Positions 9,262 through 35,330 of a DNA stretch of 35,330 nucleotides are shown in pieces; within the stretch, counting starts at the first letter, position 1; the number at the start of each line of letters is the position of its first letter. The DNA lies in assembly GCA_020061685.1 (NCBI GenBank), contig JAGUXU010000124.1:1-35330 (forward strand), in the 5' to 3' direction. The DNA comes from Candidatus Omnitrophota bacterium (GTDB taxonomy: Bacteria; Omnitrophota; Gorgyraeia; Pluralincolimonadales; Pluralincolimonadaceae). The notes beneath the pieces were generated by a model. The model was not told where the DNA came from. It worked only from the letters and a program-made list of their open reading frames with translations, and did not search any database. The position numbers and the translations under genes were made by a program.

Positions 9262-9262
9262 T

Positions 9263-15724: not shown

Positions 15725-15755
15725 AGAGGAAACGCCTCTCCAATCCTCAAAAACC

Positions 15756-15784
15756 TTGATATAGTAAGATATTACCCCTATAAT
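15756..15784 (+). promoter_or_regulatory. sigma70 promoter TTGATA-N17-TATAAT (copy 1 of a duplicated ~45-nt promoter cassette)
   Basis: The -35 is at 15756-15761 and the -10 at 15779-15784. The block 15742-15785 is near-identical to 21086-21130, including the spacer and upstream A-tract. Confidence 0.6.
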
Positions 15785-15872
15785 AAAACCAGTGAAATTA
15801 GAGAGGTTTCCCCTCATGTAATACGAGAGGGACCCCAGATTATTTTGCCTTTTTGAAAGGGAAAGAAAGAAG

Positions 15873-16220
15873 ATGATCGATTGCTTAAAATGCAAACAGA
15901 AAAATTCTTGTTGTGATTTTGGAGTATGGGTAGATTTAGAAGAAGCTAAAAAAATATTATCCCTTAGGTTAAAAGGGGATTTTTACCATCTCGAGAAGGA
16001 TAAAGATTTTCCTTCCGGGTATAGAGTTGGAACGAGCTATGAAGACAATCACTGTTCTTTTCTTACCCCGGAAGGGCTATGTTCTATTCACAAAGTTAAT
16101 TATAATTTGAAACCGGCTCATTGCAAAGAATTTCCATATGAAAAAGGAAAATTATCATTGTTTGCAGACGTCTTATGCGCGCGGGTTAAATCAAGAAGAA
16201 AGATAAAGAAAAGGATATGA
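15873..16220 (+). CDS. cysteine-cluster protein (YkgJ / CxxCxxCC-like putative Fe-S or Zn protein)
   Basis: The N-terminal CLKCKQKNSCC is followed by V.LEEAKKI and later HCSFL...GLCSIH and HCKEFP. This resembles the UPF0153/YkgJ Cys pattern, but the spacing is not canonical. Confidence 0.4.
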   Translation: MIDCLKCKQKNSCCDFGVWVDLEEAKKILSLRLKGDFYHLEKDKDFPSGYRVGTSYEDNHCSFLTPEGLCSIHKVNYNLKPAHCKEFPYEKGKLSLFADVLCARVKSRRKIKKRI

Positions 16221-16235
16221 CCAGAAATAAATACC

Positions 16236-18515: not shown

Positions 18516-19954
18516 TAAAGAATACCGGCATAGCCATTACCCCCGATAGCGAGCGCGTCATCATCAGGCCGTATATCCCCGCCGATCAATCGCGCATCCC
18601 GAAGATCGTCTCGCGCGTTATGGCCCTCGACGAACATGCAGCCGAAGAACACCTAAAGAGAACCATGCGCGATTTTTCGGCGCGACACCATAATTTTGAT
18701 GCCATCCTTGAACGCCAATTTGAGGCCGTCCGCGCATATATGCCTTCCGATTTCGCGCCTTCTAAAACACAGAGGCTTCTCATAGGAGCGTACTTCATCG
18801 GCGAGCGTTCATATGAATCAACGGGCCTATTCAATCCTTCTATTGTCGCGCATCCCGACCAATCCGGGGTTTCCGGAGGATCTTTGCGTTTTATCATCTC
18901 TTTGCGTGCGACAGGCGAGGGGCAGATATCCACATTGGTATTCCGTTCGGGGCTCATAGACAAACATGGGTCTGTATCGATCGACAAAGCTTCCGGTCTC
19001 GCGCGTACCGCTGAACCGAAACCGAATGCGCTTTATGACAAGACATGTTTTGCCATAAAGCTTTATGAAATGGGGCTGGAAAACGATTGTTCAAAGCATA
19101 CCATAGACCCGCTTCCGGCTGAATTTACCATGGAGCAGCTGGAAGAGAAGGTCAAGGATTACACTGCAGGCCATCAGCCAATAACTCAGACAGACAAGCT
19201 TACCTGCGAAAAGATCTTGTGGCTTGCCCGATGCAATTACGAGGCCACTTTCGATCCGCGGTTTCCGCTTTCAGAGCGTGTTCTATTCCCGCTTTCTCCA
19301 AGCGAGCAGAACGGCATGGAAGATGCGCGTTTCGTGTTTTTTAAGGACGATGACGGAAGCGGGAAATACTATGCCACGTATACGGCGTATGACGGCAGGG
19401 TGATCCTGCCGCAGATAATGGAGACAGAGGATTTTGTCCGTTTTAAGATGATCACCTTGAACGGCAGGGCGGCGGTCAACAAGGGGATGGCTTTGTTCCC
19501 GCGCAAGATAAACGGCCGTTACGCGATGGTCTCCCGGAACGATAACGAGAACCTTTTTTTAATGTATTCCGATAATATTCATTTCTGGCATGAGGCCGTT
19601 CCGCTGATGGGCCCTTTATACCCATGGGAGTTCGTGCAGATAGGGAATTGCGGTTCTCCCATCGAGACTGAGCGCGGGTGGCTGCTTCTGACCCATGGCG
19701 TCGGCCCGATGCGCCAATATTCGATTGGCGCGGCGCTTCTCGACCTCAAAGACCCTTCGCGTATACTCGGCCGGTTGAGCGGACCGCTTATTCACTGGGA
19801 GGATGATAGCCGTTCCGGATATGTCCCGAATGTTGTCTATTCATGCGGCGCCATGACCCATGGCGATACGCTTATCATCCCATACGCGTTATCCGACCAG
19901 CAGACGACTATCGCGCTGGTATCGCTGCGCGAGATCCTAGACAAGTTGTCTTAG
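18512..19954 (+). CDS. GH130-family (DUF377) glycoside phosphorylase/hydrolase-like protein with N-terminal extension
   Basis: The C-terminal ~260 aa shows EDARFV.F.DD.G...YYATYTAYDG, NKG.ALFPRKINGRYAM.SR, GWLLLTHGVG....Y..GAALLDL.DP and VPNVVYSCG......L.IPY. These are typical of the GH130 five-bladed beta-propeller. It has an ATGA overlap with the GT4 gene. Confidence 0.7.
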   Translation: MIKNTGIAITPDSERVIIRPYIPADQSRIPKIVSRVMALDEHAAEEHLKRTMRDFSARHHNFDAILERQFEAVRAYMPSDFAPSKTQRLLIGAYFIGERSYESTGLFNPSIVAHPDQSGVSGGSLRFIISLRATGEGQISTLVFRSGLIDKHGSVSIDKASGLARTAEPKPNALYDKTCFAIKLYEMGLENDCSKHTIDPLPAEFTMEQLEEKVKDYTAGHQPITQTDKLTCEKILWLARCNYEATFDPRFPLSERVLFPLSPSEQNGMEDARFVFFKDDDGSGKYYATYTAYDGRVILPQIMETEDFVRFKMITLNGRAAVNKGMALFPRKINGRYAMVSRNDNENLFLMYSDNIHFWHEAVPLMGPLYPWEFVQIGNCGSPIETERGWLLLTHGVGPMRQYSIGAALLDLKDPSRILGRLSGPLIHWEDDSRSGYVPNVVYSCGAMTHGDTLIIPYALSDQQTTIALVSLREILDKLS

Positions 19955-20148
19955 AGGGCCTATATTTGAAACTTAGCGGATGGATATTTCTATGGTGTGC
20001 AAGCGCAGGTATATCGCTATTTCTGAATAAATATGTTAATATAAGTATTTCCTACTTGGTGGACACCAAGAAAAAAGGCAATGACTGGAATTACGCCAAT
20101 GTTCTAGTAACATCAATGAGTTTGAAATTTTAACTAGGGTTGCCTGAT

Positions 20149-20727
20149 ATGAAGATCCGGGAAAGTGGAATGCCTGAGCGTGATATGTGGGAAAAGTTTT
20201 TTAACCCTGCAAGGATTCTTGCTTCGCTTAGCATAAATAGTCAAACAGGCGACGTTGCGGAATTCGGTTGCGGCTACGGCACATTTACGATCCCCGCCGC
20301 CAAGGTCATTAAAGGGAAAATATATGCGTTGGATATCGAGCCGGACATGATCCGGATTACTAATGAAAAGGCTAAAAAGAATGGATTGAACAATGTGCAG
20401 GCGGTATTGCGCGATTTCATGGCAGAAGGTTCCGGCCTGCCGGATGGAAGCGTGGATTACGTAATGCTTTTCAATATCCTCCATCTTGAAAAACCAGCGA
20501 TTCTTATTAACGAGGCAAAGCGAATTCTGAGAGATGGAGGGAAACTGGGAATTATCCATTGGAATTACGACCCAACGACGCCACGGGGACCTTCAATGGA
20601 TATCCGTCCCAAGCCGGAAGACTGCATAAGATGGGCAGAAAGCGCCGGATTCAGCAAATCTGCCCGACACGATTTAAAACCGTATCATTACGGGATTATT
20701 TTAACCAAAGAGGAGGGCGTAAGATGA
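20149..20727 (+). CDS. class I SAM-dependent methyltransferase
   Basis: Motif I is VAEFGCGYGTFTIPAA, followed by YALDIE, VDYVMLFNILH and LRDGGKLGI. The track ORF begins at TTG 20140; the in-frame ATG at 20149 is equally plausible. Confidence 0.75.
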   Translation: MKIRESGMPERDMWEKFFNPARILASLSINSQTGDVAEFGCGYGTFTIPAAKVIKGKIYALDIEPDMIRITNEKAKKNGLNNVQAVLRDFMAEGSGLPDGSVDYVMLFNILHLEKPAILINEAKRILRDGGKLGIIHWNYDPTTPRGPSMDIRPKPEDCIRWAESAGFSKSARHDLKPYHYGIILTKEEGVR

Positions 20728-21140: not shown

Positions 21141-21473
21141 ATGAAAGATATGAAAAAGATACTTTTAACGTTAATTGCCGTCGCATTTGTCAGTTCTTTG
21201 TGTTTTGTCGCAGAGCCGTCAGCAAATGCCGATGAAGCCAAGACCTTTACAGGCAAGGTCGAATCTATTCAAAAAGGGATCGCCAAGCCGCCGAAGTGGA
21301 CATACACGAGGATCACGTTTGTTACCGACAGCGGTGAAAAGATACTCGTTCATGCGATACAGGCCACCAAAGTTATAGATCTTTCCGGAAAAGATATAAC
21401 CGAAGGCGGGAAGATATTCGCCGCCGTTTACCTTAAAAAGGGCCAGCGCGTGGAGGTCAAGTATTCGATATAA
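21141..21473 (+). CDS. small secreted protein of unknown function (Sec-type signal peptide)
   Basis: The N-terminus is MKDMKKILLTLIAVAFVSSLCFVAEPSANA|DE: a positive n-region, a hydrophobic core and an AxA cleavage motif. The mature ~80 aa is Lys-rich and beta-strand-like with no Cys. I recognise no family. Confidence 0.6.
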   Translation: MKDMKKILLTLIAVAFVSSLCFVAEPSANADEAKTFTGKVESIQKGIAKPPKWTYTRITFVTDSGEKILVHAIQATKVIDLSGKDITEGGKIFAAVYLKKGQRVEVKYSI

Positions 21474-21476
21474 AAA

Positions 21477-22892
21477 ATGAAGATACTTTTCCGCTCGGAC
21501 CAAAAAAGAGGACAAAACCTGCCCAATCTCGGGATAGGGTACCTTATCGCTTACCTCGATAAGTACCATCCCGGCCTGACCATGGATGTTTCTTTTGACC
21601 GCGAGGATATTTTAGAAAAAATAGACTCGTTCAAGCCGGACCTGATAGGGTTTACCGCGGTCACTTTCACTTATAAGAAGGCGTCTGAATTGGCGAAGAC
21701 GGTGAAAGAGCGTTATCCCTCCATCCCGCTGGTAATGGGGGGCGCACATATCACGCTGTGCTGGGAAGCTCTGCCGGACTGGATAGATGTCGCCGTCCTG
21801 AGTGAAGGCGAGCAGACCTTCACGGAACTCGTAAAAAGCTATCAAGACAGCGGCCGGTTAAAGAAGGAGGACATCCCGGGTATCGTCTTCAGAAAAAACG
21901 GGAATTTAGTCAATACGGGGCCAAGGGAGCTGCTTAATCCGCTTGACTCTATCCCTCATCCGGACCTGGATGCCCTGTCCGTGCCTAAGAAGGAGTTAAG
22001 CCACATAATCACTTCCCGCGGATGCCCTTACAGATGCAAATTTTGCTGTTCCGCGAAGATCTGGAAGAATCCCCGCTATCATTCGGCGGAGTATGTCGTC
22101 GAAGAGATAGAAAAGGCGGTGAGGCATTACGGCCGGAAGAAACTGATGATATATGACGACCTCTTTACCGTAAATAAAAGCAGGATCCGCCGGATGGCCC
22201 AGTTAATGGAAGAAAAAGGCCTGAATAAAAGCATAGAATTTGACAGCATCTCTCATGTGGATTTCCTGAATGAGGAGGTGGTTACGGACCTGAAGAAGAT
22301 GGGGGTGACCAGGATCAGCCTGGGGATGGAATCAGGGTCCAAGAAGGTCCTCGATTACCTGAAGAACGGGGTGGTAACGCATGATAAGATAAGGCAGGCC
22401 GTAAAATTATGTAAAGAGCACGGGATCAAGCCGATGGGGTCCTTTATGATAGGCTCTCCTCATGAGACAGAAGAGGACATCAAGCAGACCATGGATTTTA
22501 TCAAAGAGATCGGGTTAGACGAACTGGTCTTGAATGTCACTACTCCCTTTCCCGGCACAGAGCTCTGGGAATATGCCAGGGAAAAAGGGTTCGTGAAAGA
22601 CAATGAGTGGGATGAGCGGCTATGGGGGATGCAGCATGTTGACGAAGGGAACATTGGGGAAAAGATAATTCTGGCCGATGTGGATAAAGAGACCTTCCTG
22701 CGTTTATACCGCCGCATGGATAATCTCCTGCTTAGCATAGTCAGAAGAAAGGAATTGCGCAATTGGCTGCGCCGGCCCTATAACCTGAAACTGCTCTGGC
22801 GGCATATCCGCGGAAGGATCAAGACATTTAAGAAGAGGATCAGGGTCAAATTAAAGATGAGGGCGGCCCGTCAGGCTCATGAAAATAAATAA
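21477..22892 (+). CDS. B12-binding-domain radical SAM enzyme (class B)
   Basis: The N-terminal cobalamin-binding-like Rossmann region shows LGIGYLIAYL, DLIGFTAVT and IPLVMGGAHIT. The radical SAM cluster is SRGCPYRCKFCCS (CX3CX2C). It starts 3 nt after the small protein gene. Confidence 0.8.
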   Translation: MKILFRSDQKRGQNLPNLGIGYLIAYLDKYHPGLTMDVSFDREDILEKIDSFKPDLIGFTAVTFTYKKASELAKTVKERYPSIPLVMGGAHITLCWEALPDWIDVAVLSEGEQTFTELVKSYQDSGRLKKEDIPGIVFRKNGNLVNTGPRELLNPLDSIPHPDLDALSVPKKELSHIITSRGCPYRCKFCCSAKIWKNPRYHSAEYVVEEIEKAVRHYGRKKLMIYDDLFTVNKSRIRRMAQLMEEKGLNKSIEFDSISHVDFLNEEVVTDLKKMGVTRISLGMESGSKKVLDYLKNGVVTHDKIRQAVKLCKEHGIKPMGSFMIGSPHETEEDIKQTMDFIKEIGLDELVLNVTTPFPGTELWEYAREKGFVKDNEWDERLWGMQHVDEGNIGEKIILADVDKETFLRLYRRMDNLLLSIVRRKELRNWLRRPYNLKLLWRHIRGRIKTFKKRIRVKLKMRAARQAHENK

Positions 22893-23919
22893 GGCATATC
22901 AGGCCTTCAAGATATTTTTTAAGGTTTTAGGCCTGGATAAAAGGATCGATAGCTATTTCAGGTTGCAGGATTTTGTCGGGACTATCGGCCCGTTGCATTT
23001 TGATTCAACCGCCGCTTCCCCGGCCGAAAAAGCGGCGTTCTTTAGAAGCCGGTTAAAGGATATCGAGGTCGAAACACACGCCTATTGTAACAGGAAATGC
23101 AGTTTTTGCCCGAATGCCTCCGTTGACAGGACTGATAAGACAAAGGTAATGCGGGAGGACGTGTTTAGGGGCATGATAGATGAACTGGGGAAGATGGATT
23201 TCGACGGCTGTATCAAGTTCCACAGATTCAATGAGCCTCTCGCCTTGGATATTATTTTTGACAGGGTGGAATATGCGCGGAAGAGACTTTCCAGGGCTGT
23301 TCTTGGCCTTCATTCCAACGGGGATTACGTAACAAAGAATATTCTGGAAAGACTCGACGATATGGGCGTAGATTTTTTCGGTATAAGCCGTTATATCGAT
23401 TTTAATGCGCCGCGTTTTAGAGTGAGAGAGGCCGCGCGTAGACATTGTGAGGATTATTTAAAAAGGCTTGGCCTTCGTGCCGCAGCGTTAAGGCCCGATA
23501 ATAATCTGGCGAGATATAAGATCCCGATGAGGCGGATGAAAGTGACGCTTTTTGTCCCGGATATAATAGGCCGCGGAAATGACCGCGGCGGGCATTTAAA
23601 GGATTTAAAGCTCAAAAAACCAAGGACCTCGCCATGCAGAAGCCCTTTCAGCGGATTATATATCGACTGGACAGGCGATGTACTGCCTTGTTGTAACCTT
23701 AGAGGCGATATCGAAGCTCAGAAGAGCTTCGTGATGGGGAACATCAGGGAGGATTCCCTTCAGGATGTGTTTTTATCTAAAGCGTCCGGCGCGATAAGGA
23801 AGATGTTAATTGATCATATTGAAAAGCCCGGGCCGTGCAAATATTGCGGTTACGACTTGTTTTATATCGGGCGTAGAGCTAAGAAATTAATAGATGCAAA
23901 GATCAAGTCATTATTGTAA
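22879..23919 (+). CDS. radical SAM enzyme with C-terminal SPASM/twitch-like Cys domain
   Basis: The radical SAM cluster is ETHAYCNRKCSFCPN (CX3CX2C), and FNEPL is present. The C-terminal auxiliary-cluster cysteines are SPCRSPF, GDVLPCCNL and GPCKYCGY. It has a 14-nt overlap with the preceding rSAM gene. Confidence 0.75.
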   Translation: MKINKAYQAFKIFFKVLGLDKRIDSYFRLQDFVGTIGPLHFDSTAASPAEKAAFFRSRLKDIEVETHAYCNRKCSFCPNASVDRTDKTKVMREDVFRGMIDELGKMDFDGCIKFHRFNEPLALDIIFDRVEYARKRLSRAVLGLHSNGDYVTKNILERLDDMGVDFFGISRYIDFNAPRFRVREAARRHCEDYLKRLGLRAAALRPDNNLARYKIPMRRMKVTLFVPDIIGRGNDRGGHLKDLKLKKPRTSPCRSPFSGLYIDWTGDVLPCCNLRGDIEAQKSFVMGNIREDSLQDVFLSKASGAIRKMLIDHIEKPGPCKYCGYDLFYIGRRAKKLIDAKIKSLL

Positions 23920-25472: not shown

Positions 25473-26915
25473 TTGAAATATAATCACGCCTTATTCATTA
25501 ACCCGTATACCGAAAGTTCCACTACGAGCGCGATGAGGCTTTTTCCGCCCACCGGACTCGAGTATGTCGCTACAAGCGCCAAGGAATGTGTGGGTAAGGT
25601 CACGCTCCTTGACCTAAGGTATAAAAGCGAGTTCTCCGATACGGCCGCGCTTTTGGATTTTATATCCAGAGAGATCGATATAATCTGTGTCGGCATCGGC
25701 TGGGACCGCCAGATCAAAGAGATCTGCGGCCTCCTGAACCGTTTTCCGGAAGGTATTCCCCTGGTCATCGGCGGATATACCGCCACCGAGAAGGTGGAAG
25801 AACTTTTTAAGGACTGCCGGAGGGCCGATATTATAGTAAGGGGGGAAGGCGAAGAGACCATCAAGGAGATACTCAGGGGCGCGCCGCCGGACAGTATTTT
25901 AGGCATTTCATATAGGTCCGACGGAAGAGTCGTCCATAACAAAAACAGGCCGCTGCCCGAGATAGATAACCTGGCTTCCCCTGACCGTTCCCTCAGGTCA
26001 AACGAGTACAACCTGTTCCTGAATGATATAAAGATAGCGGGCCTGACCTTCGATACGGTCTTGAGTTCCAGGGGCTGCCCGTTTAACTGTAAATTCTGCA
26101 CGTTCACCCTCAATCCTCTGGGGCAAAAACGTAATTATTCGGCGCGTAATCCGGTTTCCGTCGCGGACGAGATATCCGGGATAAGCGCAAGCGTCATTTT
26201 ATTCAGCGATGAAAACTTCGCGGTGGACCCAAAGAGGGCGGAAGAGATATGCGACCTGATAATAGCCCGCAAGATAAAAAAACGCTTTGCCGCGCAGGTC
26301 CGCATCGATATAGCCAAACATCCCTCATTGCTTAAAAAGATGGTAAAGGCGGGATTCAAGGTGCTTTTGCTCGGGATAGAGTCTCCGCACGACTGGATAC
26401 TGGCTCAGCTGAATAAAGGGTTTGATTCGGATACGATAAGAAGATCTTTCGTCGTGCTTAAAAAATACCCGATGTTTTACCACGGATATTTCATATACGG
26501 CAACATAGGCGAGACGGAAGAGCAGATGCTTTACATACCCCGGTTCGCGAGGGAGATAGGGGTCGATTCCATCACCTGCCTTAAACTAAGGATAGAGAAA
26601 TTCTCTCCCTTGAGGGAACTCGCGCAGAGCACGCCCGGCTACCATATCACGGAAAGCGGGCAGCTCTATTCCGACGCTTATAGCTACGCCGACTTGAAAA
26701 AAATAGGCAGGAAGATAAAGTTTTCGTTCTATACCCCGGCAAGGTTCCTGAAGATATTCTCTAAATCCCTCAGGATGAGATTTCTCAACTTCAGGGAAAT
26801 AATGCTTTTCCTTCTGGCTGTACCGCTGGTATTGGAAAATGCCATAATCCGGGATGTGCAGAAAGGGCGACTGCGGGATTCTTTAACGCGTATTTTCATA
26901 AGCAATAAACGATAA
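25473..26915 (+). CDS. B12-binding-domain radical SAM enzyme (class B), second copy type
   Basis: The N-terminal B12-like domain shows PPTGLEYVATSA, IDIICVGIGW and IPLVIGGYTAT. The cluster motif is SSRGCPFNCKFCTF. A hydrophobic C-terminal segment (IMLFLLAVPLVLENAII) is present. It has a TTG start with AGGAAAG upstream, 8 nt after the helicase stop. Confidence 0.8.
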   Translation: MKYNHALFINPYTESSTTSAMRLFPPTGLEYVATSAKECVGKVTLLDLRYKSEFSDTAALLDFISREIDIICVGIGWDRQIKEICGLLNRFPEGIPLVIGGYTATEKVEELFKDCRRADIIVRGEGEETIKEILRGAPPDSILGISYRSDGRVVHNKNRPLPEIDNLASPDRSLRSNEYNLFLNDIKIAGLTFDTVLSSRGCPFNCKFCTFTLNPLGQKRNYSARNPVSVADEISGISASVILFSDENFAVDPKRAEEICDLIIARKIKKRFAAQVRIDIAKHPSLLKKMVKAGFKVLLLGIESPHDWILAQLNKGFDSDTIRRSFVVLKKYPMFYHGYFIYGNIGETEEQMLYIPRFAREIGVDSITCLKLRIEKFSPLRELAQSTPGYHITESGQLYSDAYSYADLKKIGRKIKFSFYTPARFLKIFSKSLRMRFLNFREIMLFLLAVPLVLENAIIRDVQKGRLRDSLTRIFISNKR

Positions 26916-26975
26916 TAATCCTTTACCCTATTTTTCCTTTCAAAACTCAGATTATTGATATATAATTATATACCA

Positions 26976-28214
26976 ATGATACCCACCAGAGTCGTCATAA
27001 CCGGTTTAGGCGTTATAGCTTCCAATGGCATAGGAAAAGACCGTTTTCAGGAGGCGCTCTTCAAAGGCGTATCCGGCATCAGGCCTGTCTCCCTGTTTGA
27101 TACATCCCAGTTTAAGGTCAAGACAGGCGGGGAGATCGAGAATTTCGAGGCCGCGGATTTTTTGGGCAGTAAAGGATTGCGGACACTGGACCGCAGCACA
27201 AAGTTGCTTAACTGCGCCGCCAAACTGGCCTTAGATGACGCCAAACTGGATTTTTCCGGCGCGGACACAAGCGACGTAGGTGTCGCCGTCGGCAGCACGC
27301 TAGGGAGTATCCGCAGTATAAGGGAGTTCCATCAGGATGCCGTCAAGGACGGCCCTCGTTACGTAAACCCCTCACTTTTTCCCAATACCGTCATCAATTC
27401 GCCGGCAAGCCAGGTCTCCATCAGATTCAAGATCAAAGGATTTAATATCACTCTCTCGACGGGATTCTCCGCCGGTTTGGACGCCGTTAATTACGCGGCA
27501 GAATTCATAAGGTCGGGGCGCGCGAGGGTGGCGCTCGCCGGAGGGGTGGAGGAGATGTGCATAGAGACCTTTTTTGGTTTTTACAGGACCGGATTTTTAG
27601 CGGGGTCAAGCGGCGAGGGCCCCGAATTGTCCTGTCCTTTTGACGGTAGACACAACGGTGTTGTCTTCGGCGAAGGGACCGCGATATTAGTGCTGGAGGG
27701 TTTGGACTCGGCGATCAAGCGTAACGCCTCCATATATGGCGAAGTCCTGGGCTGCGGGCGGGGTTACGACGCTTATAATATCGGCAGATACGATCCCGAG
27801 GGCGGCGGGCTTAAAAGGGCTATGCGGACGGCGCTGAAGAAAGCGGATGTCGTCCCGGAGAATATAGATTATATCTGCGCTGCTGCGAATTCCGCAAAGG
27901 AAGGGGATATCATCGAATCCAAAGCCATAAAGGATGTTTTCGGGGTCGCCACCAAAACAAATATCAGTTCCATTAAATCCATGATAGGGGAATCGTTCAG
28001 CGCTTCCGGAGCCTTTCAGGCCGCCGCGGCCGCCTTGGCCATAGAGAAACAGGTGATCCCTGCGACGATCAACTATCGGCAGAAGGACCCCGAATGCGAT
28101 TTGAATTACGTGGCCAACGAAGCGCGCGGCTGCAAAGTGGATAATGTACTGGTGAACGCTTTCGGGCCCGGCGGGTATAATTCCAGTATGGTGATCGCGA
28201 GATTTAACGGTTGA
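26976..28214 (+). CDS. beta-ketoacyl synthase homolog lacking the Cys-His-His triad (chain-length-factor-like KS partner)
   Basis: It has a thiolase/KS fold (RVVITGLGVIASNGIG, PNTVINSPASQVSIRF, ALAGGVEEM, IKSMIGES). By hand alignment to E. coli FabF, Cys163 aligns with Phe (STGFSAG, TTC 27465-27467), His303 with Ala (ICAAANSA) and His340 with Glu (GESFS). The track start is TTG 26955; the ATG at 26976 (MIPTRVVITG) is more likely. Confidence 0.75.
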   Translation: MIPTRVVITGLGVIASNGIGKDRFQEALFKGVSGIRPVSLFDTSQFKVKTGGEIENFEAADFLGSKGLRTLDRSTKLLNCAAKLALDDAKLDFSGADTSDVGVAVGSTLGSIRSIREFHQDAVKDGPRYVNPSLFPNTVINSPASQVSIRFKIKGFNITLSTGFSAGLDAVNYAAEFIRSGRARVALAGGVEEMCIETFFGFYRTGFLAGSSGEGPELSCPFDGRHNGVVFGEGTAILVLEGLDSAIKRNASIYGEVLGCGRGYDAYNIGRYDPEGGGLKRAMRTALKKADVVPENIDYICAAANSAKEGDIIESKAIKDVFGVATKTNISSIKSMIGESFSASGAFQAAAAALAIEKQVIPATINYRQKDPECDLNYVANEARGCKVDNVLVNAFGPGGYNSSMVIARFNG

Positions 28215-28226
28215 AAGGCAGGACTT

Positions 28227-28976
28227 ATGATGCTTGAAAAGAAGGTCGCGATAGTCACAGGAGGAACCAGGGGCATAGGGAGGGAAATTGTCTTGATGTT
28301 AGCCCGCGAAGGGGCGGATGTCGCCTTTACCTATTTGAAGAGCGGCCAGGAGGCCGAGAAATTAGTGAATGAGGTAAAGGGTCTCGGGAGAAGATGCTTG
28401 GGCGTTGCGGTGGACGTGCGGGATTTCGAGAAGGCAAAGGAATTCATAGAGAAAGTAAAAAATGAACTGGACGGGCTGGATATCCTCATCAATAACGCCG
28501 GTATAACGAAAGACAAGGCCATAATGCTTACGGCAAAAGAGGATTGGCGCGATGTCATCGATACGAATCTGGGTGGCGTCTATAACATGACGCGCAACGC
28601 CATAATCACGTTCTTAAAGCAAAAAAGCGGAAATATAGTGAATATGACCTCGATAAGTGGTATCATAGGAATGGCGCGGCAGACCAATTATGCCGCTTCC
28701 AAGGCGGGTGTCATCGGTTTTACCAAATCGCTTGCCAGGGAAGTTTCCGCCTATAACATCAGGGTCAATGCCGTGGCGCCCGGGTTTATAGATACGGATA
28801 TGACCGCGGGCCTTGTAGAGAAGTATAAAGGAGAGATCGAAAAAAGCATTCCCCTCGGAAGGCTCGGTACCGTCACGGATGTCGCGCAGGCAGTGAGATT
28901 TTTGCTCAGTGATTCGGCGGATTTTATAACCGGACAGGTTATCATCGTTGACGGAGGTTTATCCTTACAACTGTAA
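28227..28976 (+). CDS. fabG: 3-oxoacyl-ACP reductase (SDR, FabG-like)
   Basis: It shows VAIVTGGTRGIGREI, NNAG, the catalytic YAASKAG, and PGFIDTDM. Confidence 0.88.
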   Translation: MMLEKKVAIVTGGTRGIGREIVLMLAREGADVAFTYLKSGQEAEKLVNEVKGLGRRCLGVAVDVRDFEKAKEFIEKVKNELDGLDILINNAGITKDKAIMLTAKEDWRDVIDTNLGGVYNMTRNAIITFLKQKSGNIVNMTSISGIIGMARQTNYAASKAGVIGFTKSLAREVSAYNIRVNAVAPGFIDTDMTAGLVEKYKGEIEKSIPLGRLGTVTDVAQAVRFLLSDSADFITGQVIIVDGGLSLQL

Positions 28977-28993
28977 TCCCAGAGGAGGGCGAG

Positions 28994-29242
28994 ATGCAGG
29001 AAATCGATACTGAGATCAAAGACCTGATAGCCAAGGTAATCGAGAAGGAGCCTGACGAGATCGACCCCAACGCGAGGTTCGCGGAAGACCTGGGTGTAGA
29101 TTCTATGATGGCCCTTGAGATCCTGGCGGCTATCGAGAAGAAATATAAGATAACCATCCCCGAAGAGAAACTTATGCAGTTCACCACCCTCAATGAGACC
29201 GTAAAGATAGCGAAGGAATTTTTAGATAAGAAAGATGCCTGA
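28994..29242 (+). CDS. acyl carrier protein
   Basis: The 82-aa ORF has DLGVDSMMALEI (phosphopantetheine Ser in DSM, the equivalent of DSL) and a four-helix-sized protein. Confidence 0.88.
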   Translation: MQEIDTEIKDLIAKVIEKEPDEIDPNARFAEDLGVDSMMALEILAAIEKKYKITIPEEKLMQFTTLNETVKIAKEFLDKKDA

Positions 29243-29681
29243 CCTGGACATCGAAGAAATCCGCAAGATATTGCCGCAGCGCTACCCCTTCCTGATGATC
29301 GATAGGGTCCTGGAGCTGGAGGCGGGCAAGAAGATAGTAGCGCTTAAGAACGTCTCCTTTAACGAAGAATATTTTTCCGGCCATTTCCCGGAGCAGCCCA
29401 TCATGCCGGGCATACTTATCATTGAGGCGATGGCGCAGGCCTCGATAATCCTTTTTTACGGCAGTCAGAATTCGGAGCAGAATAAAAAATTATCCTACTA
29501 TCTGGGCTCAGTAAAAGTAAGGTTCCTCCATCCCGTTATCCCCGGTGACCAGCTTAAGATCACGATAGAACCCCTCAAAATGCTCTCCAACGCCGGAATA
29601 GTCAAGGCGCGGGCGGCTGTCGGCGATAAAGAGATTGCCGTCGGAGAGATCAGTTTTATGGCCAAAGAGAATACCCCTTAA
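29235..29681 (+). CDS. fabZ: 3-hydroxyacyl-ACP dehydratase (FabZ-like hotdog)
   Basis: ILPQRYPFLMIDRV.EL, FNEEYFSGHFPEQPIMPGILIIEAMAQ matches the FabZ signature with its catalytic His and Glu. It has an 8-nt overlap with the ACP gene. Confidence 0.9.
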   Translation: MPDLDIEEIRKILPQRYPFLMIDRVLELEAGKKIVALKNVSFNEEYFSGHFPEQPIMPGILIIEAMAQASIILFYGSQNSEQNKKLSYYLGSVKVRFLHPVIPGDQLKITIEPLKMLSNAGIVKARAAVGDKEIAVGEISFMAKENTP

Positions 29682-29684
29682 TAC

Positions 29685-30896
29685 ATGGATAAACGTATAG
29701 TCATAACCGGATTGGGCGTCGTCTCCTCGATAGGCATCGGCCGGGAAGAATTTTGGTCCGCCCTGATAAGCGGAAAATCCGGCATAAGCGAGGTCGAATC
29801 CTTTGACACCTCGGATTTTCCCGTCCATTACGGCGGCGAGATCAAGAATTTTTCACCCGGGGCCTTTATCGATAAGGAGAAGGTCGGGAAGATAGGGCGG
29901 TCATCTCAGCTGGCTATCGGTTCGGCAAAACTCGCCGTTAAAGACGCCGGTCTTAGGTTAGACGACCTTAACAGGGAAAGGATAGGCGTCTGCCTCGGGA
30001 CGACGATGGGGGAATCACAGATACTCGTGGAGTTAGACGATGCCTGGATCAGGAAAGGTATGGACTATGTAGACGCGGGGATGGTCCCTCAATACCCCGC
30101 TTATTCGCTGTCCTCAAACGTGGCATTGGAGTTAAGATTAAAAGGCCCTAATTACATCATTCCTAACGCTTGCGCCGCAGGAAATTTCGCCGTCGGATAT
30201 GCCTGCGATCTTATAAAAGGAGGCGACGCGGATATCATGCTGGCGGGAGGGGTGGACGCCTTCGCAAAGATAGCGTTTATCGGGTTTAGCCGGTTGTACG
30301 CCATAGCGCCGCAAAAAGTCCAGCCGTTCGACCTGAACAGGAAAGGCATGATGGTGGGGGAAGGCTCGGCCATCGTGGTCCTGGAAACGCTTGAGAACGC
30401 CTTAAAGAGGGGATGCGCGATATATGCCGAGGTCTTGGGATACGGCGTAAGTTGCGACGCATACCATATGACCGCGCCCGAATCCGGCGGCATCGCCGCG
30501 GCGATAGAGAAGGCGCTTAAAGAGAGCGGGTTAACCCCGGCCGACATAGACTATTTTAACGCCCACGGCACGGGGACGCCGGCCAACGACAAGGAAGAAT
30601 GCGCGGCGATCAAGAAGGTATTCGGCGAGCGTTATAATACGCTTCCTGTCAGTTCCATAAAGTCAATGTTAGGGCATACGATGGGTGCCGCCTCCGCCAT
30701 CGAGACCGTTGCCTGTTGTTTAGCGGCAAAGAACGACATTCTCCCGCCGACGATCAATTATGAGACGCCTGATCCTGACTGCGATATCGATTGCGTCCCT
30801 AACAAGGCGAGGCCTCACAAGATCAGCACAGTCTTAAACAGCGCCTCGGCCTTCGGAGGGAACAACGCCTGCCTCGCGCTTAAGGAATTTCCTTAA
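29685..30896 (+). CDS. beta-ketoacyl-ACP synthase (FabF/KAS II-like) with intact Cys-His-His triad
   Basis: It shows IVITGLGVVSSIG, PNACAAGN (active-site Cys), NAHGTGTPANDKEE (His), and IKSMLGHTMGAAS (Lys/His). Confidence 0.88.
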   Translation: MDKRIVITGLGVVSSIGIGREEFWSALISGKSGISEVESFDTSDFPVHYGGEIKNFSPGAFIDKEKVGKIGRSSQLAIGSAKLAVKDAGLRLDDLNRERIGVCLGTTMGESQILVELDDAWIRKGMDYVDAGMVPQYPAYSLSSNVALELRLKGPNYIIPNACAAGNFAVGYACDLIKGGDADIMLAGGVDAFAKIAFIGFSRLYAIAPQKVQPFDLNRKGMMVGEGSAIVVLETLENALKRGCAIYAEVLGYGVSCDAYHMTAPESGGIAAAIEKALKESGLTPADIDYFNAHGTGTPANDKEECAAIKKVFGERYNTLPVSSIKSMLGHTMGAASAIETVACCLAAKNDILPPTINYETPDPDCDIDCVPNKARPHKISTVLNSASAFGGNNACLALKEFP

Positions 30897-32018
30897 TGCG
30901 GGATCGAAATTTCCGGGCTTGATCAATCCTGCGACGAATTTTGAGAAGAGGTTTGCCGGGGGCCAACTCAACCTGAAATAGACGGAGAGCGGGACCAGCC
31001 CCGCCCCCAGACGTACTTTGGGATCGTAATCTGTTATGCCCATCTGATAATAGCGTATGCCGTTCTTGATGCACCATTCTATATTATGCAGGAACGTCCT
31101 GTAATAGAGATGGTAGGTATGGGCGAGGTCTTTGTCAAAACCGATGAACTTATCGATGCAGGTCCGGCCGCTTACAAGGCACAGGTTAAACGCCACTATC
31201 TTTTCTTTGTCCCGCGTTATGAAGAACTTGGTGATTCCCCGCATGTTCCGTCCGATATTCTGAAAGAATTCCGGGGTCAACGTCTCAAAATGTATATCCG
31301 ACTCATTAAAATTGTTTAGGTAGAGTTCGTATATCCGGTCTCTCAGGCCGCCTATCTCGTCGACGATCTCCGTCGTAAGCGGGGCCGGCCCCGGCAATTT
31401 GTTCAATTTGCGCCTCAGGTCCTTACGCGTATTTTTGCCGAGAGAATCGATATATTCTTTTAAGGAATCCGCTTTTATCATGATCCTTGTATTGGGATAA
31501 TTTTCCATCCGCGCAAACCCATTTTTTCCCAGATAGGCCGCCAGATCGCGGTGATTTTCCGAAAGGTTATAGAATAATATCAAGCCTATCTTCTCCTCTT
31601 TGGCGATCTCGCGGAATTTCTTCAGCGCGCCGTCTAATATATCATCGGTATCCTCCGCGCCCGATATTCCTATATAGAGTTCCTCGGTAGTGGGGAAGCC
31701 CACAAAGAGCATCTTCATCTTCAGGAAGCGGCTGAAGGCCTTTTGTAAAGATAAGATAAGTCCCTGCAGGGGGCCCTGGATTATGGTAGCGAAGGAAAAG
31801 TCGTTGATAAAGAAAGGAAGGACGGCCACGATCTTTCCGCCTCTCTTGGCTAAAAGATACCCTAAGCGGAATTCCTTTATCCGGGACTCTTCAAGCGTTT
31901 TATGATAGCCGAACCCTTCCGGAGCATCTTTACCGAAAAGGCCATTCCAGTCGTTCTCGGGGATGTCCTTGATGGTCGCGGTGACGGAAAAGACGAGCGG
32001 CAACTTTTTGTCTCGCAT
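30834..32018 (-). CDS. FemAB-like / DUF482-type GNAT-fold acyltransferase
   Basis: The 394-aa ORF reads I.DIPENDW..LFG......F.YH..LEES.I..F...YLL......IVAVLPFF, a layout resembling PF04339/FemAB-like proteins. The family call is from memory of the pattern only. Its last 63 nt overlap the 3' end of the convergent KS gene. Confidence 0.5.
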   Translation of the reverse strand: MRDKKLPLVFSVTATIKDIPENDWNGLFGKDAPEGFGYHKTLEESRIKEFRLGYLLAKRGGKIVAVLPFFINDFSFATIIQGPLQGLILSLQKAFSRFLKMKMLFVGFPTTEELYIGISGAEDTDDILDGALKKFREIAKEEKIGLILFYNLSENHRDLAAYLGKNGFARMENYPNTRIMIKADSLKEYIDSLGKNTRKDLRRKLNKLPGPAPLTTEIVDEIGGLRDRIYELYLNNFNESDIHFETLTPEFFQNIGRNMRGITKFFITRDKEKIVAFNLCLVSGRTCIDKFIGFDKDLAHTYHLYYRTFLHNIEWCIKNGIRYYQMGITDYDPKVRLGAGLVPLSVYFRLSWPPANLFSKFVAGLIKPGNFDPALRKFLKREAGVVPSEGRGAV

Positions 32019-32066
32019 GATTTTTAGTATAGCAGAAACACCCCCCTTAACAACAAGTTTTTTTTG

Positions 32067-32075
32067 TGTTATAAT
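32067..32075 (+). promoter_or_regulatory. extended -10 element TGtTATAAT, 9 nt upstream of the hydrolase ATG
   Basis: TGTTATAAT occupies 32067-32075. The ATG at 32085 has no SD, so the predicted start site would fall at or next to the start codon, giving a leaderless mRNA. Confidence 0.45.
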
Positions 32076-32084
32076 TGAACCTCC

Positions 32085-32918
32085 ATGGAGAAAGCCAATC
32101 TTGCCAGATATAACTTCTTGCTGAAGGGGAGTAAAAAGGCAGTATTACTCATCCACGGCATTACGGGGACGCCTTCGGAGATGCGTTATTTCGGCAAGTC
32201 CTTAAATAAGGCCGGCTACACGGTATTCTGCAACGCCCTCCCGCGCCACTGCGGTTCTTTAACCGAACTCAAGAAAGTCACGTGGAATGAAATAGCGGAT
32301 GCCTGCATAGAGGATTTTAAACGGCTCAAGGAAGAGAATTCACAGGTCTTTGTCGCGGGCCTCTCTATGGGCGCTCTTATGGGCATACACCTGGCTTCTC
32401 TTTTTCCCTCGGAGGTCTCGGGTATCGTCGCCTTGGCGCCTACGCTATTCTATGACGGTTGGGCGCTGCATAAGGGCAAGGTTTTAATGAATCTGGTTTG
32501 GCATATACCCGTCTTAAGGGACGCGATAAACATAAGAGAAGGCTGGCCCTACGGCCTTAAGGATGAAGATTCGCGGGAGAGCATCGAGAGATTTTATAAG
32601 AACGCGAAGGCAAGCGAATTCAGTAAAAAATCCCTGCTATTCGGAAGCCCTTTTTTCCCGTTATCATGCCTTTATCAGCATACTCTCTTCGTGAAGGTCG
32701 TTAAAAAAGAACTCCCTGCGATAAGGACGCCCATTCTCATACTTCATGCCAAGGAAGACGATATGACCAGTATCCGCAATGCCCGCTACATATACGACCA
32801 TATCGGCTCCGCGGATAAGACCTTAGTGCCGTTGGAAGACAGCTATCATATGATAACTATCGATAAGCAGAAAGATAAAGTCGCCGAAGAGGCGGTCAAA
32901 TTTCTGGGCAGGTTATAA
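32085..32918 (+). CDS. alpha/beta hydrolase (carboxylesterase / monoacylglycerol-lipase-like)
   Basis: It shows KAVLLIHGITGTPSEMRYFGK.L...GY, the nucleophile elbow GLSMGA, and a late ILHAKEDDM ... SYHM (Asp/His) arrangement like the Est/YvaK-type esterases. Confidence 0.75.
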   Translation: MEKANLARYNFLLKGSKKAVLLIHGITGTPSEMRYFGKSLNKAGYTVFCNALPRHCGSLTELKKVTWNEIADACIEDFKRLKEENSQVFVAGLSMGALMGIHLASLFPSEVSGIVALAPTLFYDGWALHKGKVLMNLVWHIPVLRDAINIREGWPYGLKDEDSRESIERFYKNAKASEFSKKSLLFGSPFFPLSCLYQHTLFVKVVKKELPAIRTPILILHAKEDDMTSIRNARYIYDHIGSADKTLVPLEDSYHMITIDKQKDKVAEEAVKFLGRL

Positions 32919-34420
32919 TGGATTACGACGCGATCGTGATAGGAGCGGGGGTGGGAGGCCTGACCTCAGCCCTTATTTTATCCCGCCAGGGCAAGAAGGT
33001 CCTTCTTCTCGATTCGCAGCCGGTACCGGGCGGTTACGCGACGACATTTAAGAGAAAAGGTTTCACTTTTGAATCCTCGGTGCACTGCGTTGACGGCCTT
33101 GGCCCTGACGGCGACGTAAGAAAATTCCTGGACGACAACGAGATCGGGAAGGAGATTGAATTCATCGAGCTCGGCAGTTTCGCGCGGATGGTCTATCCGC
33201 AGGATGATTTCGTCGCGGATTTTGAACGTGATAATTTTATGGTGCTGCTGAAAGGTAAATTCCCGCAGGAAAGCGCCGCGATAGACAGATTATTCCGCGC
33301 TATGGATAAATTCTACGGACAATTCGACAATTTCGCTTATTCAAACCTTCCGATGTGGCTTAAATTGATCCTGGCTCCGTTTCTTTACCTGCAAGTGATA
33401 AAGATATCCCGGAAGACCGTCAGGGAATTCATCGAGGACTATGTGAAGGATGATAAATTCCTGGCGATCGTGACGGATATATGGCGTTTTACGGGAACGC
33501 CTCCGAGCCGCCTGAGCGCCCTTTATTTTTTATTGGTCTTCAGAGGTTATTATTACAGTCCGACAGCTTATGTGAGAGGAGGCGTATCCAAGGTCTTTGA
33601 GGCGATGGTCGGACAGATACGCAAGAACGGCTCCGATGTCAGATTTAACGCTGCCGTTGTGAAAATAATCACGGATAAGAATGATGCTGTAAAGAGAGTG
33701 GTTACCGGCAATGGCGAAGAATTCCATGCCAGGGCCGTTATCTCCAACGCCAATGCCATCGATACGCTTACCCGGATGCTTGACAACGAGGCTATGAAGA
33801 AGGAATACCGCGAAGAATTATCTTCGCTTGAGAAGTCGATATCCGCATTCCAGGTCTATTTAGGCCTGAAGATCCCCGCCAGAGACCTGGGGATGAATCA
33901 CTATCTCTTTTCCGTAAATATGACGTACGACCACGATGAGGATTTCCGGTATTCACTGGAGGGCGATTACGGGAAATGCTCGTTGGAGTTAGTGGACCAT
34001 TCACAGATAGACCCTGGCCTGGTGCCTGAAGGGAAGGGGAGCCTCCTTATCATGACCCTGGATTCTTATTCGAACTGGAAGGATTTGAACGAAGAGGAAT
34101 ATAATTTAAAGAAACAGAAGGTGGCAGATATGCTGATATCAAGGGTAGAGCGGTACCTGCCCGGACTTTCAAAAAGTATCGAACTTATGGAGGTCGCCAC
34201 CCCCAGGACAATGCTGCGTTTTACCTCATCCTCCGAGGGCGCGATATACGGCTTTGCCCAGACAGTCGGGCAGGCGGGGATCAACAGGCTGGGACAGGAG
34301 ACTCGCGTAAGAGGGCTATATCTGGCCGGTGCCTGGACACGTCCGGGGGCGGGCATACACGCGTGTCTTCTCTCAGGGATGGACGCGGCGGACCTGGCGT
34401 TGAAGTTCCTTAAAAGATAG
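32918..34420 (+). CDS. FAD-dependent oxidoreductase of the phytoene desaturase (CrtI/CrtD-like) family
   Basis: The N-terminal dinucleotide fold is YDAIVIGAGVGGLTSALILSRQGKKVLLLDSQPVPGGYA. The C-terminal GLYLAGAWTRPGAGI is typical of the CrtI/amine-oxidase superfamily. It has a 1-nt ATG/TAA overlap with the hydrolase gene. Confidence 0.8.
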   Translation: MDYDAIVIGAGVGGLTSALILSRQGKKVLLLDSQPVPGGYATTFKRKGFTFESSVHCVDGLGPDGDVRKFLDDNEIGKEIEFIELGSFARMVYPQDDFVADFERDNFMVLLKGKFPQESAAIDRLFRAMDKFYGQFDNFAYSNLPMWLKLILAPFLYLQVIKISRKTVREFIEDYVKDDKFLAIVTDIWRFTGTPPSRLSALYFLLVFRGYYYSPTAYVRGGVSKVFEAMVGQIRKNGSDVRFNAAVVKIITDKNDAVKRVVTGNGEEFHARAVISNANAIDTLTRMLDNEAMKKEYREELSSLEKSISAFQVYLGLKIPARDLGMNHYLFSVNMTYDHDEDFRYSLEGDYGKCSLELVDHSQIDPGLVPEGKGSLLIMTLDSYSNWKDLNEEEYNLKKQKVADMLISRVERYLPGLSKSIELMEVATPRTMLRFTSSSEGAIYGFAQTVGQAGINRLGQETRVRGLYLAGAWTRPGAGIHACLLSGMDAADLALKFLKR

Positions 34421-34432
34421 GAAGTCGTGAAG

Positions 34433-35330
34433 ATGGGCAAATTACGCATTATATTCGGCAGTTTCCGCGTGAAGGTCACGATAGCCCTGATCCTGTCGTT
34501 ATTTTTTGTAGCCGGACTGAGTAATTTCCTTATATATAAATTCAGCCTCGATTCGCAATTGAGCCAACTGAGGGACGGCCTGAAGGCCGTTGCCCAGACC
34601 GCCTCATTGATGGTAGACCCGCATACGCTTCTCCGGGTCCCTCTAAGCCGCGAGGGAGTAAACAGCGGAGAATACAAGCTTATCGCGGAAAAATTAGGGC
34701 AGATCAAAAAAGCCAATCCCCGGATCCTTTTTATCTATACCATGACAAAGACAGAGGTGCCGGGCGTCTGGCAGTTTATCGTGGACCCGGAACCCGTTTC
34801 CGCGGAAGGCGGAAGAAAAAGGCCGACTTCATATCCCGGAGATAAATATGATGCTTCTCTTTTTCCCGAGATGCTCAAGGCCTTTGACGGCCCCTCCGCG
34901 GATAAAGAACTCATGGTGGATGACTGGGGAGTAACGCTGTCCGGTTATGCCCCGGTCCGCGATAATAACGGCACGGCCGTAGCCATATTGGGCATAGATA
35001 TTTCGGCAAAGGATGTCCATGCCACGCAAAAGGAAGTCAAGAGGCGCGCGGTTTTTGTATTGGCGCTGGGCGTATTTATTTCGCTGTTTCTGGGCCTTCT
35101 GATCTCAAAAGGGATCAGCGATCCCATCAAGAGGCTCTCGGAAGGGACCCGGCGTATAGCCGCGGGAGATCTGCAATATAAAGTGGAGGTCAAGGGCAGC
35201 GATGAGATAAGCCGGTTGGGCGGGTCTTTTAACGAGATGGCCGGAAGCCTCTACGAATCAAGGAAGCAGTTGCACGATTATTTTTACCGTATCGTGCAAT
35301 CGCTGGTGCGCAGCATCGAGGCAAAAGACA
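34433..35330 (+). CDS. membrane sensor: extracytoplasmic Cache-like domain, TM, HAMP, then start of a probable HD-GYP domain (3'-truncated by window edge; absent from ORF track)
   Basis: I translated this by hand from the ATG at 34433; the frame stays open to 35330. TM1 is VTIALILSLFFVAGLSNFLIY. The Cache-like part includes FIYTM and WGVTLSGYAPVRDNNGTAVAILGIDIS. TM2 is AVFVLALGVFISLFLGLLI. The HAMP domain is PIKRLSEGTRRIAAGDLQYKVEVKGSDEISRLGGSFNEMA. The final IVQSLVRSIEAKD resembles the beginning of HD-GYP domains (..IEAKD.YT.GH). Confidence 0.65.
   Translation, partial: MGKLRIIFGSFRVKVTIALILSLFFVAGLSNFLIYKFSLDSQLSQLRDGLKAVAQTASLMVDPHTLLRVPLSREGVNSGEYKLIAEKLGQIKKANPRILFIYTMTKTEVPGVWQFIVDPEPVSAEGGRKRPTSYPGDKYDASLFPEMLKAFDGPSADKELMVDDWGVTLSGYAPVRDNNGTAVAILGIDISAKDVHATQKEVKRRAVFVLALGVFISLFLGLLISKGISDPIKRLSEGTRRIAAGDLQYKVEVKGSDEISRLGGSFNEMAGSLYESRKQLHDYFYRIVQSLVRSIEAKD

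Follow-up and report, generated by a model that had tools for sequence, protein, structure and literature searches.

How ladderanes are made is a question that has long resisted solution, and we know of no genetically tractable ladderane producer. The putative ladderane cluster of bacteria that oxidize ammonium anaerobically (anammox bacteria), Cluster I (KustE3603-3608), encodes an acyl carrier protein (ACP; amxACP), the dehydratase amxFabZ, two ketosynthase homologs (amxFabF2 and amxFabFmut), a phytoene dehydrogenase (PDH), and a B12-binding radical SAM enzyme (B12-rSAM). amxFabF2 and amxFabFmut form a heterodimer, similar to a ketosynthase/chain-length factor (KS/CLF) pair, that decarboxylates malonyl-ACP in vitro (bioRxiv 10.64898/2026.05.19.726425). 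The same preprint calls Cluster I unique to ladderane producers, and structural papers call amxACP, amxFabZ, and the amxFabF heterodimer anammox-specific. Rattray et al. 2009 described fatty acid synthase (FAS)-like clusters with SAM enzymes and a phytoene dehydrogenase as "rare but not unique" (Desulfotalea, Geobacter, Pelobacter), and Geller-McGrath et al. 2023 found antiSMASH "ladderane" biosynthetic gene clusters in non-anammox metagenome-assembled genomes (MAGs) of several phyla, with Omnitrophota listed. Because of these two reports, the type of gene set is already known. Here we describe a member of this class of ladderane-like FAS sets outside anammox bacteria, for which neither report makes a gene-level comparison. 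It lies at 26976-34420 of a 35,330-nucleotide stretch of DNA from a Candidatus Omnitrophota bacterium (contig JAGUXU010000124.1; the whole stretch is called the window below). Judging from its sequence, this cassette is reasonably likely to encode a second synthase dedicated to acyl chains and related to anammox Cluster I, present alongside an ordinary type II FAS (FAS II), and its product may be a specialised lipid or lipid precursor, which we regard as a candidate class. What is new is that the shared core is resolved to signature residues, that the Cluster I rSAM is absent from the cassettes, that the tail enzymes depend on the clade, that the cassette and a canonical FAS operon are found together, and that the family is large.

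The core of the cassette lies on the forward strand and consists of an inactive KS-like protein, here termed the CLF (26976-28214 from the annotated start, with a TTG at 26955 as an alternative; PF00109 1e-37, PF02801 4e-28), a FabG paralog (3-oxoacyl-ACP reductase, 28227-28976), an ACP (28994-29242; PP-binding 6e-18), a FabZ-type 3-hydroxyacyl-ACP dehydratase (29235-29681; FabA domain 1e-30), and a KS with an intact triad (29685-30896), the predicted partner of the CLF. An initial annotation had placed nine genes at 25473-34420 and had noted their tight same-strand spacing, an order different from plsX-fabHDG-acpP-fabF, and the absence of fabH, fabD, and fabI from the window. The gene calls, made from the open reading frame (ORF) listing with Pfam and NCBIfam scans of the window proteins, bear out the positions and strands as well as the order, and the spacing holds from CLF to KS, with gaps of -8 to +17 bp. 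With E. coli queries, tblastn finds no match to FabD or FabH in the window and no full-length match to FabI above 30% identity (>30%), and Pfam shows no enoyl-reductase family among the remaining window ORFs, which are ordinary housekeeping genes.

The core proteins other than FabG are specific homologs of those of Cluster I, for which reference proteins were taken from one Brocadia and one Scalindua genome. The KS is 54-57% identical to amxFabF2, the CLF 46-47% to amxFabFmut, the FabZ 51-52% to amxFabZ, and the ACP 45-52% to amxACP. The best matches in the PDB point the same way. The KS matches 9s5h_B at 501 bits, followed by Iga11 at 360 and FabF at 334, and the CLF matches 9s5h_C at 378 bits versus 264 for FabF. 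The FabZ retrieves amxFabZ (7qv0_A, 8ayb, 8ayi) and the ACP retrieves amxACP (7qv0_D, 7auf, 9s5i_E). Entries 9s5h and 9s5i appear to be the amxFabF heterodimer, judging from the 2026 Barends-lab preprint (bioRxiv 10.64898/2026.05.19.726425) and from proteins of Brocadia to which 9s5h_C is 90-91% identical; on the same grounds, 7qv0 and 7auf would be the 2023 paper's entries for amxFabZ and amxACP. A KS phylogeny, which had been suggested as a check, was calculated by neighbor joining with 100 bootstraps and groups both the KS and the CLF with the anammox pair rather than with canonical FabF. The CLFs of the window, Omnitrophota, Nitrospirota, and anammox bacteria form a clade at 100%. The partner KSs group with amxFabF2 at 80%, or at 98% with the ishigamide enzyme Iga11 added, and both clades split at 100% from canonical FabFs, those of Omnitrophota included. 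The likeness to the proposed ladderane gene set, raised in the initial annotation, therefore stands for KS, CLF, FabZ, and ACP (45-57%) and fails for the B12-rSAM beside the cassette (22-23%).

The similarity extends to functional residues. Aligned to E. coli FabF, the KS keeps Cys-His-His, and the CLF carries Phe/Ala/Glu at the positions of Cys163/His303/His340, in agreement with the earlier reading of this first KS homolog as lacking a catalytic triad. The residue that replaces the active-site Cys differs, being Phe in the window and Val, Ile, or Thr in anammox bacteria. In amxFabFmut, Phe135, Thr138, and Val139 alter which chain lengths the anammox heterodimer prefers (bioRxiv 10.64898/2026.05.19.726425), and the motif FPNTV of the window CLF corresponds to Phe135-Pro-Asn-Thr138-Val139. 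This motif is invariant in an alignment of the window CLF, relatives, and the anammox protein; it is identical in 8/9 other Omnitrophota/Nitrospirota CLFs aligned, with Phe and Thr kept in 9/9. The tunnel and gate residues of the KS (A164, C165, F203, H298, H335, M337, and F394) are the same as in the anammox enzyme, and A110 is replaced by Met. For amxFabZ, two signatures have been described as "anammox-specific" (PMC10139942): replacement of the tunnel Gly69 by Ile, which limits substrates to ~C8 or shorter, and of Arg/Lys115 by a hydrophobic residue. The window FabZ has Ile at 69 and Leu at 115, where E. coli FabZ has Gly and Arg. Ile69 occurs in 40/67 cassette-linked FabZs and Gly in 0/67, so such features are not confined to anammox bacteria.

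A dedicated, non-housekeeping KS/CLF system had been proposed for this locus, to be checked by a search for a second, canonical operon. Such an operon is present in a close relative, L086 (1-13407), which was found by searching with the FabD of locus L040 and then reading its contig. Its gene order is CLF-FabG-ACP-FabZ-KS-ABH-PDH-RsmD-CoaD-YceD-RpmF-PlsX-FabH-FabD-FabG-AcpP-FabF (ABH, alpha/beta hydrolase), with the cassette 3.8 kb upstream of a canonical yceD-rpmF-plsX-fabH-fabD-fabG-acpP-fabF operon that has its own Cys-His-His FabF, its own FabG, and an AcpP with the DSLD motif. Compared with L086, the window proteins share 63-70% identity with its cassette paralogs and 32-47% with its canonical ones; the FabG, for example, is 66% identical to the former and 47% to the latter, and the ACP 70% and 32%. 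In two window-like loci, tblastn with E. coli queries likewise finds such genes: FabH and FabD in L040, both within a few kb on the downstream side of the cassette, and FabH in L045, where plsX-fabH-fabD follows the cassette at a short distance. Since a close relative holds both the cassette and a complete canonical operon, the cassette is a dedicated type II FAS/polyketide synthase (PKS)-like KS/CLF system and not the housekeeping FAS. Among the KEGG orthology entries (KOs) listed in the source data of Seymour et al., FabD, FabG, FabZ, ACP, and FabF appear and 0/4 enoyl-reductase KOs do, which is a hint that extends to those listed entries. The main texts of Omnitrophota papers are silent on specific FAS gene content, and one supplement contained no matches.

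To follow the cassette across genomes, CLF relatives were searched with two peptide patterns, FPNTVINS and S[SA]IKS..GE, using one genome per species. This search gave 490 loci with a CLF relative in species-representative genomes, the best 80 of which were compared at the locus level. These 80 are mostly from Omnitrophota, including the complete Ca. Velamenicoccus archaeovorus genome, and 11 are from Nitrospirota/Thermodesulfovibrionia. More than 120 CLF homologs have 55-76% identity, and all that bear a taxon name belong to Candidatus Omnitrophica/Omnitrophota. Seventeen of the best 80 come from third-party annotation (TPA) assemblies labelled uncultured Planctomycetia/Planctomycetales (e.g., L022, L025, L038, L068, L081). 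These MAGs carry cassettes of the Omnitrophota type, and their labels are probably wrong, because at least L038 has the same layout as the Velamenicoccus locus L037 and, gene by gene, comparable identity to the window proteins. The comparison confirmed that the neighborhood CLF-FabG-ACP-FabZ-KS is conserved in relatives, as the initial annotation had expected of a dedicated system. Forty-six loci have at least 3 kb upstream and at least 6 kb downstream of the CLF; in this well-flanked set an active KS is present in 30/46, and the ACP accompanies it in 30/30. A PDH-like gene occurs in 16 of these 30 KS + ACP loci, and across the 46 we find the hydrolase in 6, the GNAT in 4, and the B12-rSAM that adjoins the window cassette in 0.

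The genes downstream of the KS vary more. In the window, a FemAB-like GNAT on the reverse strand (30834-32018; Acetyltransf_6 PF13480 4e-16, FemAB_like PF04339 1e-11) converges on the KS and overlaps its 3' end by 63 bp. It is followed on the forward strand by an alpha/beta serine hydrolase (ABH, 32085-32918; Hydrolase_4 8e-24, GLSMG serine motif), with a promoter-like site ahead of it at 32047-32075, and by a CrtI/CrtISO-family FAD oxidoreductase (PDH-like, 32918-34420; Amino_oxidase 1e-25), whose start overlaps the ABH stop by 1 bp and whose scores for carot_isom (211 bits) and crtI_fam (184 bits) are both below cutoff. In the window-like clade of 11 loci, the ABH-PDH tail is present at 51-73% identity in 10/11, the remaining locus, L004, ending inside the GNAT; the ABH orthologs, 65-73% identical, lie after the KS in the same proportion (10/11). 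The GNAT is found at 47-56% identity in 6/11 (L004, L024, L041, L057, L068, L081) and is missing in L005, L008, L040, and L045, where the ABH directly follows or overlaps the KS. For this reason the GNAT looks like a lineage-specific accessory inserted into an ancestral CLF-FabG-ACP-FabZ-KS-ABH-PDH operon. Thus, of the tail genes assigned to the pathway at the outset, the hydrolase and the flavoprotein are kept in the window clade and the GNAT is kept in part of it. The GNAT has no NCBIfam match and no PDB sequence match, its structure predicted from the single sequence has a predicted local distance difference test score (pLDDT) of 36 and is unusable, and the literature on PF13480/COG3146 shows only uncharacterised GNAT N-acyltransferases of the argolaphos cluster. 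The best PDB matches of the ABH are bacterial monoacylglycerol lipases (MGL) at ~100 bits, and it also resembles the Est30 carboxylesterase. The PDH-like protein shares 28-30% identity with the PDH of Cluster I and 24% with CrtI. It forms one clade with the ABH-linked PDHs of relatives; the anammox PDH falls outside this window-type clade, among PDHs from other cassette loci. In other clades a stand-alone thioester reductase (NAD_binding_4, TIGR01746-like) takes the place of the esterase after the KS, as in Ca. Velamenicoccus archaeovorus LiM (L037, 13982-15079) and L018 (15635-16756), which suggests release of an aldehyde or alcohol in those lineages.

These comparisons place the locus among described systems. 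It shares with Cluster I the specific KS/CLF and FabZ homologs, and probably an amxACP-type ACP, all of them also its best PDB matches, the FPNTV motif of the CLF, the Gly69-to-Ile change and hydrophobic residue 115 of FabZ, and a CrtI-family flavoprotein in the operon neighborhood. It differs in order, being CLF-FabG-ACP-FabZ-KS rather than ACP-FabZ-KS-CLF-PDH-rSAM, in having its own FabG where Cluster I has none, in its extra esterase and GNAT, in a PDH of another clade, and in lacking an ortholog of the Cluster I B12-rSAM. The host differs as well, because Omnitrophota are not known to make ladderanes; for this uncultured phylum we found no lipid data in the literature. The highly reducing type II PKS of ishigamide (Iga11/Iga12) likewise combines a KS/CLF with discrete ketoreductase (KR), dehydratase (DH), and ACP and has no enoyl reductase (ER). 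Iga11, the second-best PDB match of the KS and a member of its clade, is the nearest non-anammox KS. However, identity to Iga11 is lower than to amxFabF2, and the window has no amide-forming or other ishigamide tailoring genes; for the window cassette a polyene is a candidate product. With canonical FAS II the cassette has in common the enzyme families, the chemistry of each round, and probably a shared FabD and malonyl-CoA. It departs from canonical FAS II in its predicted heterodimer-type KS with a dead subunit, in a private ACP without DSLD, in a FabZ of the short-chain type, and in bringing along no FabH, FabD, or ER; in the close relative it is extra to the canonical operon.

We propose that housekeeping FabD would load malonate onto the private ACP. 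By analogy with the anammox pair, the KS and the dead CLF would form a heterodimer that decarboxylates malonyl-ACP for self-priming and then elongates the chain, a role suggested by 46-57% identity together with a complete Cys-His-His triad and tunnel residues that match those of the anammox enzymes. In each round the private FabG would reduce and the amxFabZ-type dehydratase would dehydrate. From the bulky tunnel Ile of FabZ and from Phe and Val in the CLF, a preference for short chains (~C6-C8) is predicted, as measured for the anammox enzymes. Since the cassette has no enoyl reductase, the chain would either stay unsaturated or depend for its reduction on a gene outside the cassette. The CrtI-like flavoprotein may then alter the unsaturation, by desaturation, isomerisation, or saturation, and in the window's clade the MGL/Est30-like serine hydrolase, a candidate release enzyme, would release or re-esterify the chain. 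With a thioester reductase at the hydrolase position in other clades, the end product would differ by lineage with the core unchanged. The heterodimer and FabG/FabZ steps draw on experiments with ~50% identical homologs; the FabD, flavoprotein, and hydrolase steps we infer. The PDH-like protein was also considered as the missing enoyl reductase, an assignment that we did not adopt because many cassette loci have no PDH at all.

Several observations count against a second synthase of the Cluster I type. One is that 16/46 well-flanked loci have CLF-FabG-FabZ with no active KS or ACP within 10 kb. This orphan class, which includes L003, L011, L012, L017, L019, L022, and L025, usually lies between the riboflavin operon and a DNA ligase, and its CLF is still catalytically dead. 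The KS/CLF heterodimer model does not account for it unless the partner gene lies elsewhere; either a KS and a carrier from another site in the genome complete the set, or the CLF must have another role. The in vitro work on the anammox enzymes reached products up to acetoacetyl-ACP and took the length preference from a cross-linking assay, and the chain-length argument used here is borrowed from those enzymes at ~50% identity. The roles suggested for the hydrolase and the flavoprotein follow from family membership and synteny, and the flavoprotein is in a different clade from the anammox PDH at 28-30% identity. Finally, the canonical operon is seen in close relatives, and the window covers 35 kb of its own genome.

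A broader reading, which we put forward as tentative and on balance doubtful, is that Omnitrophota and Nitrospirota use an anammox-type KS/CLF-ACP-FabZ module for an undescribed class of lipid, the module being ancient and shared across phyla and having later been joined in anammox bacteria to their own B12-rSAM. Candidates would be acyl chains that are short and polyenoic or unusual in some other way, and the tail enzymes would decide whether they leave as acids, aldehydes, or alcohols. If this were true, the Cluster I rSAM, possibly with the PDH, would be the sole ladderane-specific chemistry in Cluster I, and amxFabZ, amxACP, and the amxFabF heterodimer would be open to study through a family present in several hundred sequenced species. 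The KS/CLF-ACP-FabZ core with its signature tunnel residues occurs in hundreds of Omnitrophota/Nitrospirota genomes that do not have the Cluster I rSAM. A core so common outside the holders of that enzyme is probably a generic module for short-chain or unsaturated acyl groups and unlikely to be ring-forming machinery, and this subtractive comparison leaves the Cluster I B12-rSAM as the ladderane step to test. Taken singly, the locus is one more member of a set that antiSMASH already labels "ladderane" in such MAGs; as a family, the cassettes point to a second lipid pathway that is apparently common in two phyla about which little is known.

The remaining alternatives would give the cassette a different purpose or chemistry. 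One is that it supplies short-chain (~C8) acyl-ACP for a cofactor such as lipoate, in the manner of mitochondrial FAS II. The anammox homologs do favour substrates of C6-C8 or shorter, and in the Velamenicoccus-type clade lipoyl genes lie directly upstream of the cassette in ~13-16 loci. In L001, L018, and L037 (~7300-9500) these are a gene resembling dihydrolipoyl dehydrogenase, one for a ligase of the LplA/LipB type, and a small gene for a lipoyl carrier. However, octanoyl-ACP requires an enoyl reductase, which the cassette does not have, and cofactor supply needs no PDH-like flavoprotein, thioester reductase, or esterase. The lipoyl genes are moreover found in one related clade only, and neither in the window nor in the riboflavin-linked class. 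Taking both sides together, we consider a role in cofactor supply improbable.

The initial annotation coupled the cassette to the B12-rSAM at 25473-26915, with two further rSAM genes at 21477-23919 as possible partners. This would make the product a ladderane-like lipid, or one cyclised or methylated by radical SAM chemistry, with the B12-rSAM and perhaps the upstream pair modifying the chain, an explanation that we regard as quite improbable. In its favour, the gene (Pfam B12-binding and Radical_SAM, with CX3CX2C read in GCPFNCKFC) is separated by a gap of 60 bp from the CLF, which follows it on the same strand, and Cluster I too pairs KS, CLF, FabZ, ACP, and PDH with a B12-rSAM. In addition, locus L006, which falls outside the well-flanked set owing to a short downstream flank, has a 67% identical B12-rSAM homolog 4.5 kb from its cassette; this homolog, however, is on the opposite strand with genes between. 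The adjacent B12-rSAM is 22-23% identical to the Cluster I rSAM (22-25% for both B12-rSAMs of the window) versus 45-57% for the core proteins. Its family has 415 metagenome relatives, and a KS or CLF lies within 8 kb in 0 of the best 80 of these, at 62-70% identity (L088-L167). Nor do these 80 loci share a conserved neighborhood, the commonest partner occurring in at most 11/80. Conversely, no homolog is found at the well-flanked cassette loci (0/46). A promoter-like site at 26939-26966 also lies between the B12-rSAM and the CLF. Considering the 0/80 family loci, the 0/46 cassette loci, L006 as the sole nearby case, and this promoter-like site, we conclude that the adjacency is incidental, and the B12-rSAM is probably not part of the system. 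The proposed coupling is thus not upheld.

The same applies to the upstream rSAM pair, which never accompanies the cassette in related loci and is split from it by a DEAD-box helicase; its assignment to the pathway was abandoned, and we conclude that these genes are unrelated neighbors as well. The same helicase is near the adjacent-type B12-rSAM in 8/80 loci of that family. Within 21141-23919, the pair is preceded by an ORF for a secreted protein of 110 aa, which has a clear signal peptide and matches no family; in the pair the B12-rSAM comes first and a SPASM-domain rSAM second, and the stretch may be a separate maturation unit. The nearest models of this upstream B12-rSAM are BchE, HpnJ, and C-methyltransferases of ribosomally synthesized and post-translationally modified peptides (RiPPs), all far below cutoff. 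We also tried TIGR04072 (rSAM_ladder_B12, cutoff 360) as a test for a ladderane rSAM. The window rSAMs score 55 and 88 bits, and the control proteins, the Cluster I rSAMs of anammox bacteria (L084 12711-14171; L085 12775-14241), score 86-88 bits against the same cutoff of 360. As the genuine Cluster I enzymes fail too, the model is uninformative and was dropped, and the rSAMs were judged by pairwise identity and synteny. TIGR04072 presumably describes an rSAM of another lipid cluster, and its name could mislead.

That the cassette is a rearranged form of the organism's housekeeping FAS is very unlikely, though the family models are divided. FabG (306.6 bits for TIGR01830, cutoff 297.75) and FabZ score above their equivalog cutoffs in NCBIfam, as does the KS for the subfamily model NF005589, but the ACP (56.2 bits versus 70.45 for acpP) and the KS (436.3 bits versus 493.75 for TIGR03150, fabF) are below theirs. 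The cassette does sit among core genes in many genomes (the riboflavin operon, tricarboxylic acid cycle genes, rpoA), and Omnitrophota genomes are small. Against this, L086 has the full canonical operon beside the cassette, a further Omnitrophota contig (L087) has the canonical operon with no cassette adjoining, one KS subunit is catalytically dead, and the FabZ bears the short-chain Ile69 signature.

An aryl-polyene or flexirubin-type pigment cluster, suggested by the combination of KS and CLF with a KR, ACP, and DH of their own but no ER, by ApeI-like and ApeP-like entries on FabZ orthologs in precomputed Pfam lists, and by a FabG score of 245 bits for the NCBIfam model FlxB_rubin_SDR (below its cutoff of 340), is hardly credible, given that Pfam shows no aryl-starter enzymes, second dehydratase, LolA-like/MMPL exporter, lysophospholipid acyltransferase, or adjacent glycosyltransferase in the window, that there is one FabZ-type DH rather than paired ApeI/ApeP, and that the KS and CLF group with the anammox pair in the tree.

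The rest of the window holds genes of other kinds. Positions 14469-20727 encode a DUF134 regulator, a SAM methyltransferase, a NifB/NifX-like Nitro_FeMo-Co domain protein, a CxxCxxCC protein, a GT4 glycosyltransferase of 759 aa whose C-terminal extension is long, a GH130 phosphorylase extended by ~250 aa at its N terminus, and a second methyltransferase; none of these genes adjoins the cassette in related loci. Directly downstream of the PDH-like gene, an ORF at 34433-35330 runs off the end of the window and encodes a membrane sensor with a HAMP domain, the final residues of which look as if an HD-GYP domain begins there. In L001 and L018, too, the cassette has histidine kinases and HD-domain response regulators as neighbors, and such sensor-type genes beside the cassette may hint at regulation.

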